A stretch of DNA of 41,937 nt, from the UHGV virus genome UHGV-0025826; one strand, 5' to 3'. Both the position numbers and the translations under genes were made by a program. A model generated the notes under the pieces. That model was not told the DNA's origin. It searched no databases and saw nothing but the letters and a program-made list of their open reading frames with translations. Source of the DNA: a virus. Within the stretch, counting starts at the first letter, position 1; each line of letters opens with the position of its first letter. Below are positions 21,608 to 32,304 of this stretch, one piece after another.

Positions 21608-22168
21608 ATGAAATACTCACAGCAAGAAAAACTACAGATCATGATGCTCAGTGATATTCACCGAGCATTAGAAATTGAAAACTCATTTGATCCTGACCTC
21701 ATTGACGAAGCAGTGAGCACGGATAACTACTGGGCTTTATCCTGGGAATACCCAGGCCTTCAAGATGAAGAAGAGGAGACCCCCTGGGAAGTCCAGCTTT
21801 TCGTTGATACCTATGATATGTATGACATTCTCCAATACACATACGAACGATTCAGTGCGGAAGACAAAGCAGAGGTTGCCAAATCTATTCGTAATTTCGA
21901 TGAGAAATTATCACTCACATTCCCCGGATTTGACGGTAACAACGAATCAAAGTTTCTTTTGATTGGTAGTTTATTGAAACGAATGGGACGGTTTAGCGGC
22001 AAAGACGATCTCACCCGGAACTCTCACATGCCCTCTGTTGCAATTTACCAACGTATGCTTGAAGTTTTCCTTCCTGCCAGAGCTAAGAATTGGGTTCACA
22101 ATGTGGGCATTACTAAACATGATTTTATCGATACACTCAACGCGAGAGTGCATCCAGAAAATCGTTAA
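21608..22168 (+). CDS. YfbU-family (UPF0304) protein; opposite-strand moron between lysis and packaging genes
   Basis: 186 aa; recalled E. coli YfbU shares DxYxMY..L, FLGFD-like and a C-terminal YQRML.V segment (here VDTYDMYDIL, TFPGFDG, YQRMLEVF). Confidence 0.5.
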   Translation: MKYSQQEKLQIMMLSDIHRALEIENSFDPDLIDEAVSTDNYWALSWEYPGLQDEEEETPWEVQLFVDTYDMYDILQYTYERFSAEDKAEVAKSIRNFDEKLSLTFPGFDGNNESKFLLIGSLLKRMGRFSGKDDLTRNSHMPSVAIYQRMLEVFLPARAKNWVHNVGITKHDFIDTLNARVHPENR

Positions 22169-23593: not shown

Positions 23594-23618
23594 AATAAAA
23601 AAGGCCGCTTGAGCGACC
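23594..23618 (-). terminator. Rho-independent terminator between methyltransferase and holin genes
   Basis: Minus-strand RNA GGUCGCUCAAGCGGCC followed by UUUUUUAUU. Confidence 0.45.
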
Positions 23619-23624
23619 TCACGT

Positions 23625-24677
23625 TTATTCCCCTGTTAACGCCCTTATTTCCTCCACCGTCTGGCTAAACCTGTCCTCCTCGAGTTCAACGCCGATAGCC
23701 TGGCGGCCAAGTTCCAGCGCGATTTTCACGGTCGAACCGGACCCCATAAAGAAATCAGCCACCACATCACCAGGCTTACTGCTGGCGTTGATGATCTGCC
23801 GCAACATGTCAGCGGGTTTTTCGCATGGGTGTTTACCTGGGTAAAACTGAACGGGTTTATGTGTCCAGACGTCGGTATAAGGAACGGATACGGAAACAGA
23901 GAAATGCCGCCGAAGCGATTTGTACTCTTCGAGCAGCTCTGAATACTTGCGATTTAACGAATGCCACATAGCCACCAGCTGGTGGTGTGGTGTTGCCAGT
24001 TCGCCGTTCTGGTGCTTTTCGATGGCTACCTGCGTGAAAAGGGACTGAAGATTCCGGTAGTCTAATTCATTCGGTAATTGCCACTGGCTACCGCTGAACC
24101 AGTGAGACACCATGTTCTTCTTTCCAGTCGCATCGGCTATTTGTTTTGAGGTTATGCCAAGCGCTTCACGTGCATCCCGGAAATAAGAAATTAGGGGAGT
24201 CATTACATGCTGCTTCAGCTCGCTTCCCTTCTCCGCGTAACCGTCGCTCTTTGGTTTATACGGCCCCTGGTAATGCTCAGCGAAGAGGATGCGCTCTGTT
24301 GCAGGGAAGTAAGAGCGCAGACTCTCTTTATTACAGCCATTCCAGCGGCCCGACGGTTTAGCCCAGATGATGTGGTTCAGGACGTTGAACCGCTCACGCA
24401 TCATGATCTCAATGTCTGCCGCCAGGCGGTGACCGGAGAAAAGATAAAGACTGCCAGCAGGTTTAAGCACTCGCCAGAATTGTGCGAGGCACATATCAAG
24501 CCAGCGAAGATAATCCTCATCCCCTTTCCACTGATTGTCCCAGCCGTTGGGTTTCACTTTGAAGTACGGCGGATCCGTGACTATCAGGTCAATGGAGTTA
24601 TCAGGGAGAGTGGCGATGTATTGCAGGCTATCAGCGTTGACTAACTCAACACTGTTTATATTTACAGTATTTTTCAT
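23625..24677 (-). CDS. DNA methyltransferase, beta-class (N6-adenine or N4-cytosine), no adjacent endonuclease recognised
   Basis: 350 aa; DPPY motif near the N-terminus (LIVTDPPYF) and FxGxG near the C-terminus (DFFMGSGST). Confidence 0.85.
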   Translation of the reverse strand: MKNTVNINSVELVNADSLQYIATLPDNSIDLIVTDPPYFKVKPNGWDNQWKGDEDYLRWLDMCLAQFWRVLKPAGSLYLFSGHRLAADIEIMMRERFNVLNHIIWAKPSGRWNGCNKESLRSYFPATERILFAEHYQGPYKPKSDGYAEKGSELKQHVMTPLISYFRDAREALGITSKQIADATGKKNMVSHWFSGSQWQLPNELDYRNLQSLFTQVAIEKHQNGELATPHHQLVAMWHSLNRKYSELLEEYKSLRRHFSVSVSVPYTDVWTHKPVQFYPGKHPCEKPADMLRQIINASSKPGDVVADFFMGSGSTVKIALELGRQAIGVELEEDRFSQTVEEIRALTGE

Positions 24678-24819: not shown

Positions 24820-24869
24820 ACCTCCGAAATGGAGGTGCGAAGGCATAAAAAAACCCCGCTTAAGCGAGG
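24820..24869 (-). terminator. Two tandem rho-independent terminators downstream of the Q-proximal two-gene cassette
   Basis: Minus-strand CCUCGCUUAAGCGGGG then U7 (24847-24869), followed by ACCUCCAUUUCGGAGGU then AUUUUG (24820-24836). Confidence 0.5.
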
Positions 24870-24886
24870 TTATTTCGAATAGATAA

Positions 24887-25291
24887 TCAAGCAGCAGGTT
24901 CGGATGGATAAACCTGCTCATACATCTGCTGAAGGGTGTCAATAGCTTTGTTAGCCATTATCAATATAGCTTCCGCATCAGCCTTACTTAAAGTTCTATC
25001 AAGCTCGTAATCTGCCCATTTACGTCGGGTATGCAAATGTCTCAGCATTGTTCCCATAGAAATGAGTTTCATTTTTTCAAACGGCTCATTTCCTTTTAAC
25101 CATGCATCATTTGTAAGATAGTCGCGAACAGCTTGGTGTGACGACTTGTTTGGGCATTTCTCAAGCTTATCAAGCGTTTCATGATAAACTCCATAATACG
25201 CTCGACCAATGGCGTTTCTGTAACCGATTTCATCGTTGTGAGAAATGCATTTACCAGCAAAAACAATAAAATCTTTCCCCGATACGCTCAT
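24887..25291 (-). CDS. Hypothetical protein, cassette A gene 2 (134 aa); possible HEPN-like R-x6-H motif
   Basis: Start overlaps the upstream stop (ATGA at 25289-25293); contains RAYYGVYH; looks AT-rich by eye; no family recognised. Confidence 0.5.
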   Translation of the reverse strand: MSVSGKDFIVFAGKCISHNDEIGYRNAIGRAYYGVYHETLDKLEKCPNKSSHQAVRDYLTNDAWLKGNEPFEKMKLISMGTMLRHLHTRRKWADYELDRTLSKADAEAILIMANKAIDTLQQMYEQVYPSEPAA

Positions 25292-26046
25292 CAGTAAATC
25301 CCTCTTTTTTCATCGCTTTGGAACCAGGATGTAAAAGGGCTGTTCCGATAACTATCATCTGAGAGCAAAACCAACAGTTCCATGTTCATTTCAGCTAAAA
25401 CCTGCGGATCAGCAGTTTGGGCTCTAACGATGAATGCATTGTCATCATCTCCACCAAGATAATAGCTAACACTTGAACAGTTAATACCGCGCTTGTTCGC
25501 AATCTCTTCAGCTTGATCGCAAAGGGCTTCTAGTTCTCGAGAAGAAAGACGGGTAGCGTTTTTGAAATCAACAATCTGTTCAGCCATATAATTTCCCTGA
25601 TTGATTATATCCTCTCGCTCTTGGCCATCATAAAGAGCAGCCATTTTGAGGGAGAACTTTTTAACCAACTTGTCGTTGCCGATACAAAATGCAGCGTTTC
25701 TTGCTACAAGCCTCAGTTCATGTGAAGGGAAAAGCTCAACTATTCTAAACAACTCAACGCGATGCTCATAGTTATGAGCCGAACGAGAAAGATACGCCAA
25801 GTAGTTTTGTGCGATCGTTGGACTCCCAGAGCTCATCGCGTCTTTGAATAAACGTACTGCATCAGAGTGACGCCCGAGAGTTCCATTAAGCCATGCATAC
25901 GCATGTGCGCGCTCACTTATTGGAAGTTTAGCAATGTCGTGCTCAATTTCCGCAATAGTGTCTGTATCCGGGACTTCTCCCTTCTGGAAGTAATCGAGGA
26001 TTGTTGCAAGCAGTTCTTGTTCTTTTGACTCAGGCTGTCCTGACAT
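25291..26046 (-). CDS. Hypothetical protein, cassette A gene 1 (251 aa); predicted helical, TPR-like repeats
   Basis: Segments such as AHAYAWLNGTLGRHSDAVRLFKDA and IAQNYLAYLSRSAHNYEH look like TPR-type helical hairpins; no catalytic motif recognised. Confidence 0.5.
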   Translation of the reverse strand: MSGQPESKEQELLATILDYFQKGEVPDTDTIAEIEHDIAKLPISERAHAYAWLNGTLGRHSDAVRLFKDAMSSGSPTIAQNYLAYLSRSAHNYEHRVELFRIVELFPSHELRLVARNAAFCIGNDKLVKKFSLKMAALYDGQEREDIINQGNYMAEQIVDFKNATRLSSRELEALCDQAEEIANKRGINCSSVSYYLGGDDDNAFIVRAQTADPQVLAEMNMELLVLLSDDSYRNSPFTSWFQSDEKRGIY

Positions 26047-26390
26047 AATTTTCCCGAAGAAAACTAAATTCTGTATGTTTTCAATAGCTTCACTGGATAG
26101 GTTTTTATATTGCTGTCATCAGTATTGAAGCTTTTACGGGATTGTACAGGACCATCAGCGTTCTACTTGTGCATAAGAATTTAATAAACCTACAGACTTA
26201 TCCACAGAAAAAAGAGTTATCAACAAAAAAAGTTATTCACAACTTAACTAATAGCAAAATATTGTTGATAAGCTGTGCGTAATTATCATATCCATCAAAC
26301 TTACGCACATTAGAGCCTTGTGTTGCCTATCCATCGTTTTTTCCTATCAAAACGAAACGACATGCTTTTCTGCGATTAAAAAAGTATTCC

Positions 26391-26423
26391 GCAAAATTAA
26401 AAAACCCGCTCACTGGCGGGTTT
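26391..26423 (-). terminator. Rho-independent terminator about 45 nt downstream of the Q-position gene
   Basis: Minus-strand AAACCCGCCAGUGAGCGGGUUU followed by UUUUUUAAUUUU. Confidence 0.55.
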
Positions 26424-26468
26424 ATATACTGTTGGCACAATATCAAATTTACACGAAATATATGCTAA

Positions 26469-27158
26469 TTAGTTCATTTTTGCAATACCTTGCTGATAGT
26501 TTGCTGCCTTTTGTTGTGAACGTGATCGCGAAACATGAAGTAGCGCCTTGGAGTCGAGTCCCTTATACAGGCTGATAATTACATTGTAATGTTCCACGTA
26601 ATTTTGAGACCAGTTTGTTTTGTTAACTCCCACCAGCGCAGCCAGATCACCATATTGATAGACATCACGCCCAGCCAATTCAGCCTTCACATCCTGTGCC
26701 GCCAGCCAGATAAGCTGTCGCAACCGTTCGACGGTCTTCTTCGCCACCTTCCTCCCGGCCAGATGCTCGCAAAATTTCGACCACGCCCACTGAGTAATCA
26801 GCACCTGATTATCCCAACTCACATTCTCGCTATAGTTCCATAGCAACCAGGCCTTCTGGTGTTCTTCGAGCGTCATCAGTGCGCGGCGCCACGATGCCGT
26901 TGAATACTCAACCGGTTGCACCAAGGGAATATGCGAACCCTTGGTATGCGACTGTTTGCCGGGAATCGGTGGGTTATCAAGCGTAATCATTTTCCCGGTC
27001 ACTTCATCCAATATTCGAGGCTTCTTACGTTTAAACGTTCCCGTATCAAACTGCGCGTTCTCAAGCCACGCCATCAACTGCCCTTTCGTCGCACCACTTA
27101 AATCGGCGGTAGCCACCATCAGCTGCTGGCGCACGTATTCGAGGAATTGAGTGTTCAT
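26469..27158 (-). CDS. Putative late-gene antiterminator (Q position; not lambda Q family)
   Basis: 229 aa; last gene of the nin-like operon, immediately upstream of the late leader; no similarity to recalled lambda Q. Confidence 0.4.
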   Translation of the reverse strand: MNTQFLEYVRQQLMVATADLSGATKGQLMAWLENAQFDTGTFKRKKPRILDEVTGKMITLDNPPIPGKQSHTKGSHIPLVQPVEYSTASWRRALMTLEEHQKAWLLWNYSENVSWDNQVLITQWAWSKFCEHLAGRKVAKKTVERLRQLIWLAAQDVKAELAGRDVYQYGDLAALVGVNKTNWSQNYVEHYNVIISLYKGLDSKALLHVSRSRSQQKAANYQQGIAKMN

Positions 27159-30467: not shown

Positions 30468-30708
30468 TTAAGCTGCGATCTCTTTCTGCTGACAAAGCTC
30501 CGGTAAATTAGCCCTCACCAGTGCCTCGGCGAATGGCGGCGGAACTGCGTTGCCACAACGCGCAACCTGCTTGTCCTTCGCGTACTTCTGCCCCCGATAG
30601 TCCTGATCGATGATGTACCACTCCGGGAAGCCCTGCCAGTTTGGCGTTGTTCAACCCTGGGTTGTTGCGCAGGGCTGCCAGCACCTGCTCACGGATTGTT
30701 ATGTTCAT
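30468..30708 (-). pseudogene. Frameshifted 3' remnant of a C5-cytosine DNA methyltransferase (motif IX/X-like)
   Basis: One frame (30468-30650) encodes ..WQGFPEWYIIDQDYRGQKYAKDKQVARCGNAVPPPFAEAL.., resembling GFPD..Y and GNAV of C5-MTases; an ATG 1 nt after the P stop opens a different frame (MNITIREQ..) with no possible N-terminal catalytic domain. Confidence 0.4.
30483..30532. repeat. Imperfect direct repeat, copy 2
   Basis: tttctgctgacaaagctccggtaaattagccctcaccagtgcctcggcga. Confidence 0.6.
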
Positions 30709-30709
30709 G

Positions 30710-31399
30710 TCACACCATCCCGTTCGACTTGTTGCGGTTGTACTTGGCCAGCAGCAGCTGGATCGGCGTCGGCCCTTGCTCGGCAGCTGGTGCGGCAATA
30801 GCCCGGCGTACCGGCGGCACTGGCTTACCCTCGGTGACGCGCCTTTCCCACATGTCCAGCAGATCGCCTGCCTCGCGTGCCAGTTCACCATGCGTTAACT
30901 GGCGCTCGGTGCTGCGGTGGCGCAATTCTACGCAAATGTGGTACATGACCGGCTGCGACCATGGAAATTGCTCGCTGGAGATGAATTCGAACGAGCGGTT
31001 ACGCCAGTCCCAGTATTCGGCGATCACCTGGTCAACGTTGACGCCCAGCGCGCCGCCGCTCTGCTTGCACCAGGCGACGAACTGGCCCGGCGACGGCAGG
31101 AATGGGCGCTCCTGGCGGCGGGCAATGCGCATGCCGGCATCGACCTGAGCCATGGTGTGGATCCCGTTCTCCTGAAACGCCAGCAGCCACTGACGGCGGA
31201 ATTCGTTCAGGTCTTCCTGGGTGCGGAAGTTCGCCATGCTGGCCGGGAACGCGGCGCGCAGCTCGTTGAACAGCTTGTTGAATACCTGCGCCACCTGCTC
31301 GACCGGCGCGCACTCCTGGTACTGCTCTGGCAGGTTATGGGCCATGCGGCTCATCTGCTCGCGGTCGTGGTTACGCATCTGCTCTGCAAGAGATTTCAT
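30710..31399 (-). CDS. P: Replication protein P (helicase loader, lambda P family)
   Basis: 229 aa; near-collinear with recalled lambda P (MKxxAxQMxNxDREQMxRxAxNxPEQY...VAQ..N..F..L.A.FPAS.AN...Q...NE.RRQW.LAF.ENGI.TM.QV.AGMR.ARRQ.RPFLPSPGQFVAWC). Confidence 0.85.
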   Translation of the reverse strand: MKSLAEQMRNHDREQMSRMAHNLPEQYQECAPVEQVAQVFNKLFNELRAAFPASMANFRTQEDLNEFRRQWLLAFQENGIHTMAQVDAGMRIARRQERPFLPSPGQFVAWCKQSGGALGVNVDQVIAEYWDWRNRSFEFISSEQFPWSQPVMYHICVELRHRSTERQLTHGELAREAGDLLDMWERRVTEGKPVPPVRRAIAAPAAEQGPTPIQLLLAKYNRNKSNGMV

Positions 31400-32304
31400 C
31401 GGATCACCCCATAGGCCCAGTCAGTGTTGTTGAAGTCCAGATCTGGCTTGACAGCGCGCTGCTCACCTCCGGCGTTACGCTGCATTGTCAGCTTGTCCCA
31501 CTGCTTACGCAGGCTTTCGGGACTCAGGATGTTGGTCTGCCAGAAGTGGTGTTTGCTAGCCCAGTCATACAGCGCGCAGATGTCCTGGTGCGACCGGTCG
31601 TCTATCTGGCGCATCAGGCGAACAGTGTTAGACCAGGAGGTCATGTCCGGGGCTTTGCAGGTTGGGTTAATCAGCTTCACCCTGGAGGAAATCCACTTAG
31701 CTGTCTCGAGGTCTTCAGCAGAGCCCCACTTCGCACCGGATGGTGTGTAGACCGCAGCTTCAGGATGAGTTGATAAAAATTTCTTCAGACGTGCGTCAGA
31801 GGATTCGTCAGAATTCTCGGACGAAGATCTTTTAATACTGTTCTTGTTCTTGTATTGGGTGTCTACCGTTTTCGGGAAGGTTATTCCTGATTTCGGGAAG
31901 GATTTTCCCGTTTTCGGGAATTTTCTTCCCGTTTCCGGTTTGTCTAAAATCCATGCTGAAAGGTCAGTGTTTACACCGACGATTTTCATCATGCCCTGCT
32001 TCTGTGAAAAGATGATTTTGCGTTCTGCGAGAGACTTAAGCGCGTCCGATACATGCGTATCGCTCAGGCCCGTAAGCTCGGCAATAACCGTATTTGTCAC
32101 GCGGTCCTGTTTCTTGTTCCAGCCGTAGGTAAGCCAGATCACCGCCTCAAAACATTGCCATTCCCGGCCTGACAGTCTCAGGCGAGGCTTAAGCTGTTGG
32201 ATCTCGTTAGCGACCTTGGTATACCCGTTCGACAGGTCGGCCATACGACCTCCCGGTTGTTCGGTTTTATTTGGGAATTTGAATATTTCAGCGGTATTTG
32301 ACAT
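31396..32304 (-). CDS. O: Replication initiator O (lambda O family)
   Basis: Start set to ATG at 32304 with GGAGAA upstream; N-terminal LTYGWNKKQDRVTNTVIAELTGL resembles lambda O KTYGWNKPMDRITDSQLSEITKL; iterons inside the gene; stop overlaps P start. Confidence 0.75.
   Translation of the reverse strand: MSNTAEIFKFPNKTEQPGGRMADLSNGYTKVANEIQQLKPRLRLSGREWQCFEAVIWLTYGWNKKQDRVTNTVIAELTGLSDTHVSDALKSLAERKIIFSQKQGMMKIVGVNTDLSAWILDKPETGRKFPKTGKSFPKSGITFPKTVDTQYKNKNSIKRSSSENSDESSDARLKKFLSTHPEAAVYTPSGAKWGSAEDLETAKWISSRVKLINPTCKAPDMTSWSNTVRLMRQIDDRSHQDICALYDWASKHHFWQTNILSPESLRKQWDKLTMQRNAGGEQRAVKPDLDFNNTDWAYGVIR
31867..31944. repeat. Origin-like iterons inside the O gene
   Basis: Four direct repeats spaced about 20-21 bp (three with core tttcgggaa, a fourth degenerate tttccgg) with an AT-richer stretch on the low-coordinate side. 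Confidence 0.5.

Follow-up and report, generated by a model that had tools for sequence, protein, structure and literature searches.

A two-gene cassette encoding a TPR-like protein and a predicted stand-alone HEPN domain between Q and the lysis genes of a temperate phage

The cassette and its slot

What are the two AT-rich genes that lie between the late antiterminator gene and the lysis genes of a lambdoid prophage, and what might they do for their carrier? We addressed this question for UHGV virus genome UHGV-0025826 (the window, 41,937 nucleotides), where an initial annotation had placed two co-oriented open reading frames in the Q-to-lysis interval. Both were found at exactly the coordinates it gave, on the minus strand, with the large gene (251 aa) at 25291..26046 and the small gene (134 aa) at 24887..25291. 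Their position was also as described: the Q antiterminator gene (26469..27158; PF06323, E 1e-97) lies upstream, and an N6/N4 methyltransferase gene (23625..24677) lies downstream, beyond which are holin-like, lysozyme and DUF2514 genes. The two reading frames had been said to overlap by ATGA. These letters are present at the junction, which reads TAC TGA TGA GCG, but the overlap is of 1 nt rather than 4 nt, with TGATG sharing base 25291. In homologous pairs from other loci the overlap is 1 nt, 4 nt (ATGA) or 11 nt long, so that the coupling is conserved. That both reading frames are real genes is confirmed by their intact frames and by synteny kept in more than 40 distinct loci, to approximately 30% identity. 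Rfam and tRNA scans found no RNA genes in the window.

The cassette had been judged by eye to be richer in AT than the phage backbone, and the numbers agree: GC is 0.408 (24826..26420) compared to 0.504 for the whole window, and GC3 is 0.36–0.39 compared to 0.53–0.58 for the neighbouring genes. Comparison with a related prophage, that of Nissle 1917, delimits the segment precisely. Homology runs through the methyltransferase gene to 24825 and resumes at 26399..26485, and between the same flanks the Nissle 1917 prophage carries unrelated cargo instead, so that the slot is variable, as had been anticipated. From the flank comparison and the GC content (0.41 vs 0.50) we define a variable cargo segment, or moron, of 1.57 kb with the cassette (24826..26398, minus strand). 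It is present in 12 of 5426 complete E. coli genomes, the flank being common to 42. Atypical composition (GC and GC3), variable presence between conserved flanks and a terminator of its own are the marks of a moron. Thus the cassette is an accessory unit of its own, as first supposed, being AT-rich, closed by a terminator and swapped out in the Nissle 1917 prophage. The Nissle 1917 cargo genes at the equivalent slot have no PADLOC match, and this comparison therefore speaks neither for nor against a defence hotspot.

Two tandem terminators had been proposed to close the cassette, and both hairpins are there, though of unequal strength. The stronger, an intrinsic terminator read from 24871 to 24852 (24852..24871, minus strand; −13.1 kcal/mol, z −3.8), combines a T7 tail with a stem of 8 bp, 5 of them GC pairs, and is also present in L024, a locus whose cassette is 75% identical. 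The weaker hairpin, read from 24836 to 24820 (24820..24836, minus strand; 6-bp stem, −9.4 kcal/mol), lies at the junction of cargo and backbone; its tail, ATTTTGCTGT, is an interrupted T tract, and the homology breakpoint at 24825/24826 falls inside it. At the other end, a tR'-like terminator (26402..26423, minus strand; T6 tail, −12.0 kcal/mol, z −3.8) forms the upstream boundary of the slot. It lies downstream of the late promoter: a promoter-like site, TTGCAA-17-TATATT, is found ahead of it at 26485..26457, beside the Q stop codon.

The region upstream of the cassette (26047..26401, minus strand) is AT-rich, with a GC content of 0.327. Approximately 300 bp of it are conserved in blocks in another phage, together with a cassette of only 75% overall DNA identity. 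The conserved blocks include CTGTACAATCC and three matches to the DnaA-box consensus at 26168..26241. The region moves with the cassette, which suggests autonomous regulation, and it probably holds the regulatory elements of the pair. A search of this region for σ70 promoters found no minus-strand match of at least 9/12. In the window pR'/tR' precede the module, and late transcription antiterminated by Q would therefore run through it as well; in a lysogen, expression would depend on the conserved upstream region.

The cassette is a two-gene module that moves among temperate phages. All 36 IMG/VR loci, and every further locus that we examined (to 30% identity), have the two genes side by side and in the same orientation, and their order is constant, the large gene coming first and overlapping the small one, as in antitoxin-toxin operons. 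In Enterobacterales the exact large protein is found on approximately 700 or more contigs and the exact small protein on at least 1000. The slots occupied are prophage ends, nin regions, head-tail junctions and Q-to-lysis intervals, the last involving at least four types of Q; at prophage ends the orientation is opposite to that of the neighbouring phage genes. In a P2-like Vibrio phage the pair occupies the gpA-to-portal hotspot, which in P2 holds tin and old (PMC9122126), and in Klebsiella it is found on an island, with an integrase and an ApeA/PDC-S58 protein as neighbours.

The two proteins

Searched as single sequences against Pfam, NCBIfam and PDB, neither protein gave a significant match; the small protein of the window by itself has no Pfam match at E<1, and PHROGs matches were to families of unknown function only. 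The family is more informative. A family profile of the small protein run against PDB matched the HEPN proteins 9xbd (3e-5) and 9xbc (1e-4), in support of the initial assignment to HEPN, and PF05168 was matched by 8 of 24 family members, the best at 1.5e-5. Its fold is the up-down HEPN bundle of four helices, in which an insert separates core helices 2 and 3. From these matches we assign it as a stand-alone HEPN domain of the HEPN-T type (PF05168), AF0298-like.

The element RAYYGVYH had been taken as the one that defines HEPN RNases. We find that its R30-x6-H37 sits in core helix 2, which is not the canonical position. The canonical Rx4-6H is expected where core helix 3 ends, and here the small protein reads R90-K-W-A-D94-Y95, without a histidine. 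R90, D94 and Y95 are invariant at this site, as is H52 at the start of the insert helix, where it aligns with the SH of 9xbd. This arrangement is that of the alternative site described for the AF0298 subgroup by Anantharaman et al. 2013 (PMC3710099), in which the arginine is retained, an aspartate stands for the histidine, and a conserved histidine is supplied by the segment inserted between helices 2 and 3. We predict an active site of R90, D94 and Y95 with the distal H52. Across 35 distinct small-protein sequences we count nine invariant residues that are charged or polar, a pattern that speaks for an enzyme and against a scaffold; E21, R25, R30, H37 and K73 among them lie on helices adjacent to the predicted site. 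The invariant set, including the R, the D/Y and the distal H, is kept as far as Vibrio homologues. HEPN domains normally act as dimeric RNases, and we infer RNase activity for the small protein. To our knowledge no activity has been demonstrated for an AF0298-type HEPN-T protein, and together with the absence of the canonical histidine this makes a non-catalytic binding role possible.

The large protein had been described as all-helical with TPR-like hairpins. This holds for its N-terminal half, where four hairpins (approximately residues 8–136) form tandem helix-turn-helix repeats that match TPR models, and two long helices follow (residues 141–184). It does not hold for the C-terminal domain (190–244), which is beta-beta-alpha-beta and resembles the RimP N-domain. 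We take the large protein to be a TPR protein without enzymatic activity that carries a small alpha/beta domain of RimP-N type. Only five residues are at least 97% conserved, invariant polar residues are almost absent, and in 14 of 15 pairwise comparisons it is the large protein, not the HEPN protein, that diverges faster; the few conserved residues and the faster divergence fit a binder or sensor. A weak profile match to RsfS (E 0.02) was also seen. A cryptic nucleotidyltransferase (G187...D200-D202) was considered and rejected: the acidic residues are not conserved, a tight beta-hairpin is predicted, and there are no nucleotidyltransferase matches.

What the cassette may do

HEPN RNases are recurrent effectors in bacterial immunity and in toxin-antitoxin systems. 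We suggest, with about an even chance of being right, that the cassette is a toxin-antitoxin-like or abortive-infection module in which a HEPN effector is held or triggered by a TPR partner. The large gene would be translated first and the small gene coupled to it, and the TPR protein would bind the HEPN protein and keep it inactive. The TPR protein may double as a sensor of a cue from an infecting phage. On such a cue the HEPN protein would be released or activated and would cleave cellular or phage RNA, causing growth arrest. We infer both the inhibitor or sensor role of the TPR partner and the defence phenotype; the accessory and defence-type slots (the P2 tin/old hotspot, and the position beside ApeA) support the defence reading. 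A more specific version is tentative: the pair may be an unrecognised anti-phage Abi system in which a RimP-N-type TPR sensor licenses a HEPN-T RNase acting via R...D-Y and a distal His, expression in the E. coli lineage perhaps being wired to DnaA as well, through the cluster of three boxes that overlies the putative promoter.

Several other explanations share part of this evidence. The pair could be a classical addiction module that only stabilises its prophage or island, loss of the element killing or arresting the host, with no phage exclusion. The order of an antitoxin-like gene followed by a HEPN gene, their translational coupling, the carriage of the pair on mobile elements and the nearest recognised two-gene architecture, the MNT-HEPN toxin-antitoxin system, would all suit such a module, but the slots are ones known for anti-phage cargo. 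Enterobacter CP100130.1 (re-sequenced), if its sequence is genuine, also argues against a strictly required antitoxin: compared to CP019113.1, one extra nucleotide within a run of A breaks the large gene in two, and the HEPN gene is intact. If real, the split would mean that HEPN alone is tolerated, although we do not take it as decisive. We regard pure addiction as unlikely; since many toxin-antitoxin modules also defend against phages, it is not cleanly separable from the effector-partner module that we prefer. A role in the lytic cycle, with Q-dependent late expression and the HEPN and TPR proteins acting on host, competitor or phage RNA (in shut-off, counter-defence or processing of late transcripts), is suggested by the position of the pair directly downstream of Q/pR'/tR' in late orientation, in the window and in approximately 15 other loci, and by the promoter search in the window, which found no strong one belonging to the pair. 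In Morganella the gap between Q and the cassette is only 150 bp, so that expression there may be purely late and lytic, and a defence role in the lysogen fits less well. Against a lytic role are the copies in opposite orientation at prophage ends, the copy on a non-phage chromosomal island, and an Erwinia copy with its own promoter (10/12, extended −10) and terminator on its flanks. The cassette is moreover rare and patchy among phages that are otherwise alike (12 of the 42 flank-sharing E. coli genomes), and the upstream 300 bp moves with it. We consider a lytic role improbable.

The small protein might instead be a non-catalytic binder of nucleotides or RNA that forms, with the TPR protein, a regulatory or lysogenic-conversion factor without killing. 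The missing histidine of Rx4-6H and the resemblance of the partner's C-terminal domain to the ribosome-binding RimP-N would be consistent with this, and some HEPN families are considered to be binders without catalytic activity (PMC3710099). However, the nine invariant charged or polar residues, which include the AF0298-type site and persist to the Vibrio homologues, and the genomic contexts of defence or accessory type argue against it, and we hold this explanation to be quite improbable. The initial annotation had also offered the pair as a restriction partner for the neighbouring orphan methyltransferase, and we considered it as a restriction or effector partner of this DNA methyltransferase. 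The two do adjoin in the window and in several E. coli loci, and HEPN-T genes at times cluster with R-M operons (PMC3710099), but the co-inheritance expected of an R-M pair is not seen. Gene order is variable, with Q, methyltransferase and pair in that order in L049, and the distributions are independent in both directions: Nissle 1917 and approximately 30 other flank-sharing genomes have the methyltransferase but no cassette, and the cassette is found without the methyltransferase in Morganella, Erwinia, Enterobacter, Klebsiella, Yersinia and Vibrio, as well as in slots distant from it. Terminators separate the pair from the methyltransferase, and the two differ in composition. The independent distributions leave this partnership effectively refuted.

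The cassette is a compact and genetically tractable E. coli example of the AF0298-type HEPN-T branch with an obligate non-enzymatic partner, one that shifts from one documented defence hotspot to another in lambdoid and P2-like phages and could show whether the alternative active site is catalytic. Even without a phenotype, it is a clear example of a moron shuttling between phage accessory slots.

Comparison with known systems

The PADLOC comparison that had been suggested for this locus came out negative, as no validated-system model of PADLOC-DB 2.0 matches either protein. The large protein matches no model of any kind in that database, and the small protein has only weak matches, to HEPN_IX and to PDC-M05B, which is the HEPN component of a candidate system made up of a nucleotidyltransferase and a HEPN protein. 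Neither protein is present in the DefensePredictor supplementary tables; the DefensePredictor candidate DS-28 'ANEX' (a HEPN protein of 163 aa and a 252-aa protein) was compared and found to be unrelated in sequence and gene order. Literature searches by accession, structure and keyword found no description of a TPR and HEPN pair.

AF0298 (PDB 2hsb) and the related HEPN-T proteins TT1696, ST0689 and PDB 9xbd, which are among the closest known counterparts of the small protein, come mostly from archaea or thermophiles and have no assigned function. Compared to these AF0298-like proteins, the phage family has the additional invariant residues E21, R25, H37 and K73 and an obligate TPR partner. 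A precedent for small prophage-encoded HEPN Abi proteins is HepS on the Gifsy-1 prophage of Salmonella (PMC13043305). It differs in having a canonical R100-x4-H105, in being encoded by a solo gene and in forming a tetramer, and has no detectable sequence similarity to the small protein. The Abi RNase AbiV of Lactococcus is among the Foldseek matches, but the similarity is weak; AbiV is approximately 200 aa long and its reported partner is an RNA antitoxin rather than a TPR protein. RnlA-RnlB and LsoA-LsoB differ in that their toxins are multi-domain proteins with the canonical motif and their antitoxins are unrelated to TPR proteins. Their gene order is reversed relative to that of the cassette.

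The nearest likeness is to MNT-HEPN (type VII toxin-antitoxin; PDC-M05). Like the cassette, it consists of two overlapping genes, the partner gene preceding that for a small stand-alone HEPN protein, and its toxin and the cassette HEPN share one clade, the nucleotidyltransferase-associated HEPN-T proteins (PF05168). This order, with a coupled HEPN gene downstream of its partner, is seen in all cassette loci examined. In MNT-HEPN the partner, a minimal nucleotidyltransferase, modifies the HEPN protein, whereas that of the cassette is a TPR protein with no nucleotidyltransferase signature. The design of the cassette mirrors MNT-HEPN with a TPR protein replacing the nucleotidyltransferase, and, if the cassette does protect against phages, this would be a new partner class among HEPN modules.

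Extent and surroundings of the cassette

The cassette consists, on the minus strand, of a large gene (25291..26046, 251 aa) and a small gene (24887..25291, 134 aa), which lie exactly where the initial annotation had placed them. Their junction reads ...TAC TGA TGA GCG..., with stop and ATG having one base in common (TGATG) instead of the 4 nt of ATGA described there. In homologous pairs the two genes share 4 nt (ATGA) in Morganella, Erwinia and Enterobacter, 1 nt (TAATG) in Klebsiella and 11 nt in Yersinia, so tight coupling has been conserved. The AT-richness noted by eye is clear: GC is 0.408 in the cassette versus 0.504 in the window, with GC3 at 0.36–0.39 versus 0.53–0.58, and the 355-bp spacer upstream has a GC of 0.327. 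The two tandem terminators proposed are both present, that at 24871..24852 being strong (−13.1 kcal/mol, z −3.8) and the hairpin at 24836..24820 weaker.

After a Q antiterminator gene (PF06323, E 1e-97) upstream of the cassette come a promoter-like site (26485..26457) and then a T-tract stem-loop (26423..26402), as expected for pR'/tR'. On the downstream side there is an N6/N4 DNA methyltransferase gene (23625..24677, minus strand) with its own terminator (23620..23601), then holin-like, lysozyme and DUF2514 genes. A weak helix-turn-helix match (HTH_3, E 9e-4) separates the two catalytic halves of the methyltransferase, whose gene is found on either side of the cassette, depending on the phage. 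Between the small terminase and lysis genes, on the opposite strand, we find a YfbU-family gene (21608..22168, plus strand; PF03887, E 5.5e-12; PHROG 6084, unknown function). Given its GC of 0.42 it appears to be another, independent moron, and a 68%-identical copy is present in L023, another cassette-bearing phage. Elsewhere, GC is unusually high across 30501..31500 (0.60–0.63 versus 0.50 for the window).

Homology with a related prophage of E. coli Nissle 1917 runs through the methyltransferase to window position 24825 and resumes at 26399, so that the cargo segment is 24826..26398. Between the same flanks the Nissle prophage has unrelated cargo (L002 6128..7922), comprising two small ORFs and the gene of a Clp-fold serine protease of the SDH family, with PADLOC matches to none of them; the slot, initially taken for an accessory-gene hotspot, is indeed variable. 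The whole cassette occurs at ≥99.7% identity in 12 of 5426 complete E. coli genomes, and a further 30 have the flank without it. The unit is mobile: in strain ECCWS199 the antiterminator ahead of the same cassette is another one, and so is the terminase of the phage. For a cassette of 75% DNA identity in another phage (L024), the alignment begins at the terminator and extends about 300 bp into the upstream spacer, where strongly conserved blocks alternate with diverged stretches, so the upstream region belongs to the mobile unit.

The same upstream region contains three matches to the DnaA-box consensus TTWTNCACA, one of them perfect (TTATCCACA), within 74 bp (26168..26241); the whole 42-kb window has only five, against 3.7 expected. 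A conserved TACAAT follows one of the boxes at a distance of about 21 nt. The 75%-identical cassette keeps two of the three, and the Klebsiella pair has a single perfect box upstream, the sole one in 10.8 kb. Boxes are lacking in Morganella, Erwinia and most of the other copies.

A HEPN protein and a TPR-like partner

Single-sequence searches of Pfam, NCBIfam and PDB with the small protein gave no matches. A 24-sequence family alignment matched PDB entries 9xbd and 9xbc ('HEPN domain-containing protein'; E 3e-5 and 1e-4), and 8 of the 24 members reached PF05168 (best 1.5e-5). These profile matches settle that the small protein is a HEPN domain on its own, from the HEPN-T clade associated with nucleotidyltransferases. 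The HEPN assignment of the initial annotation thus holds, whereas RAYYGVYH, proposed there as the defining element, falls in core helix 2 and corresponds to the clade's RAYYA signature, not to the RNase motif, even though R30 and H37 are both invariant. In the profile alignment the canonical motif position is R90-K-W-A-D94-Y95, facing RNRSDY of 9xbd, and H52 aligns with SH of that entry. Among 35 distinct sequences, including homologues at 30–35% identity, the residues conserved in at least 97% are F8, A12, E21, I22, R25, R30, Y32, Y33, G34, H37, H52, Y58, L59, K73, L83, R90, D94 and Y95, a set with many side chains of catalytic type. The motif has no canonical histidine, and we know of no demonstration of activity for the HEPN-T branch that lacks it. 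This residue pattern is exactly the variant described for AF0298-like HEPN-T proteins and AbiV, in which the Rx4-6H histidine is missing, often with D instead, and a second conserved histidine in a helix 2–3 insert may complete an alternative active site (Anantharaman et al., PMC3710099).

Searched by profile, 1.8 billion representative proteins yielded 71 clusters of the large family (E up to 1e-3), most of them 250–265 aa long with a match spanning almost the whole protein. TPR_2 is matched by 24 of 59 members, and the AlphaFold model (pLDDT 90.3) comprises eight helices forming four hairpins (8–136), two long helices (141–184) and a beta-beta-alpha-beta end (190–244), so the TPR-like hairpins proposed earlier are borne out but the protein is not all-helical. 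Only N81, Y82, G123, D213 and N221 are at least 97% conserved, and across six loci the large protein has diverged further than its HEPN partner in 14 of 15 pairwise comparisons (e.g. 21% versus 44%). Few conserved residues and faster divergence suggest a role in binding or regulation, not an enzymatic one. A nucleotidyltransferase was considered and rejected: the protein has no match to PDC-M05A (one half of the PADLOC candidate PDC-M05), no nucleotidyltransferase fold match and no conserved acidic pair.

Pairing and genomic slots

Scanning IMG/VR with the small-protein alignment gave 36 loci, all with a large-family member directly upstream on the same strand, abutting or overlapping. All genome loci examined, and three isolated phages, show the same pairing; it is obligate. 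The slots vary. The order Q, pair, (methyltransferase), lysis occurs in about 15 loci with at least four antiterminator types, and Q, methyltransferase, pair, holin in one (L049). Other pairs lie at prophage ends, where integrase, tail-fibre or umuDC-like genes adjoin them and their orientation is often opposite; in the nin region (several IMG/VR loci and Klebsiella phage Chronis gp57/gp58); at the head-tail junction (Yersinia; Klebsiella ST405-OXA48phi1.3); and in a Klebsiella/Raoultella chromosomal island near an ApeA/PDC-S58 HEPN protein and a phage integration site. In a P2-like Vibrio phage the pair sits between portal/ogr-like genes and gpA, the locus of tin and old in P2, which Rousset et al. 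have shown to be an anti-phage system hotspot (PMC9122126).

Three of these loci have further features. In the Klebsiella island (L004 1408..4292), between umuC and the phage integration site, the pair is adjoined by the ApeA-like HEPN protein (PDC-S58, E 1e-35) and by a 356-aa protein without Pfam or PADLOC match. GenBank splits the HEPN gene of ST405-OXA48phi1.3 (MK416008.1; L054 4000..4400) into two short ORFs, although one frame runs through and gives an intact homologue (about 135 aa) immediately behind the TPR-family gene. Two near-identical assemblies of Enterobacter sp. SA187, likely the same strain (L015 5242..6004 and L016), differ by a single extra A in an A run, which in one of them breaks the large gene into ORFs of 109 and 100 aa but leaves the HEPN gene intact; this is either a sequencing error or a sign that HEPN alone is tolerated.

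Proposed function and relation to known systems

RefSeq annotates both genes as hypothetical. The UniRef names, 'HEPN domain-containing protein' and 'Tetratricopeptide repeat protein', indicate that the domain content had already been recognised automatically. Checked against PADLOC-DB 2.0 as the possible defence locus of the initial annotation, the pair matched no known system; neither protein is present in the DefensePredictor tables, and we found no functional description of the pair in the literature. The cassette is a two-gene HEPN module whose partner class is new and whose putative active site is non-canonical.

Taking fold, conserved residues, gene order and contexts together, we consider an abortive-infection module resembling toxin-antitoxin pairs the most likely reading, in which the HEPN-T protein would act as RNase effector and the TPR protein as its inhibitor, its sensor, or both. 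What we observe are the folds, the obligate pairing, the mobility, the kinds of slot and the conserved residues of the putative active site; we infer catalysis, interaction between the two proteins, a trigger and a phenotype. The partnership with the adjacent methyltransferase considered initially is ruled out as a dedicated one, because the pair occupies differing slots, as would be expected of a self-sufficient accessory module. The pair might instead serve the lytic cycle and be expressed mainly late under Q, and we found no convincing σ70 promoter between tR' and the first gene in this window; the Erwinia copy, however, does have a promoter (10/12, extended −10) as well as a terminator. 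The cassette is a worthwhile defence candidate, if an unproven one.

Its layout mirrors that of MNT-HEPN modules (PDC-M05 in PADLOC), with the nucleotidyltransferase replaced by the TPR protein. HepS of Gifsy-1, also a small HEPN protein of a lambdoid prophage, is a default-off abortive-infection effector triggered by a phage protein (PMC13043305). HepS has the canonical motif and no partner, whereas the cassette combines a partner gene with a non-canonical site.
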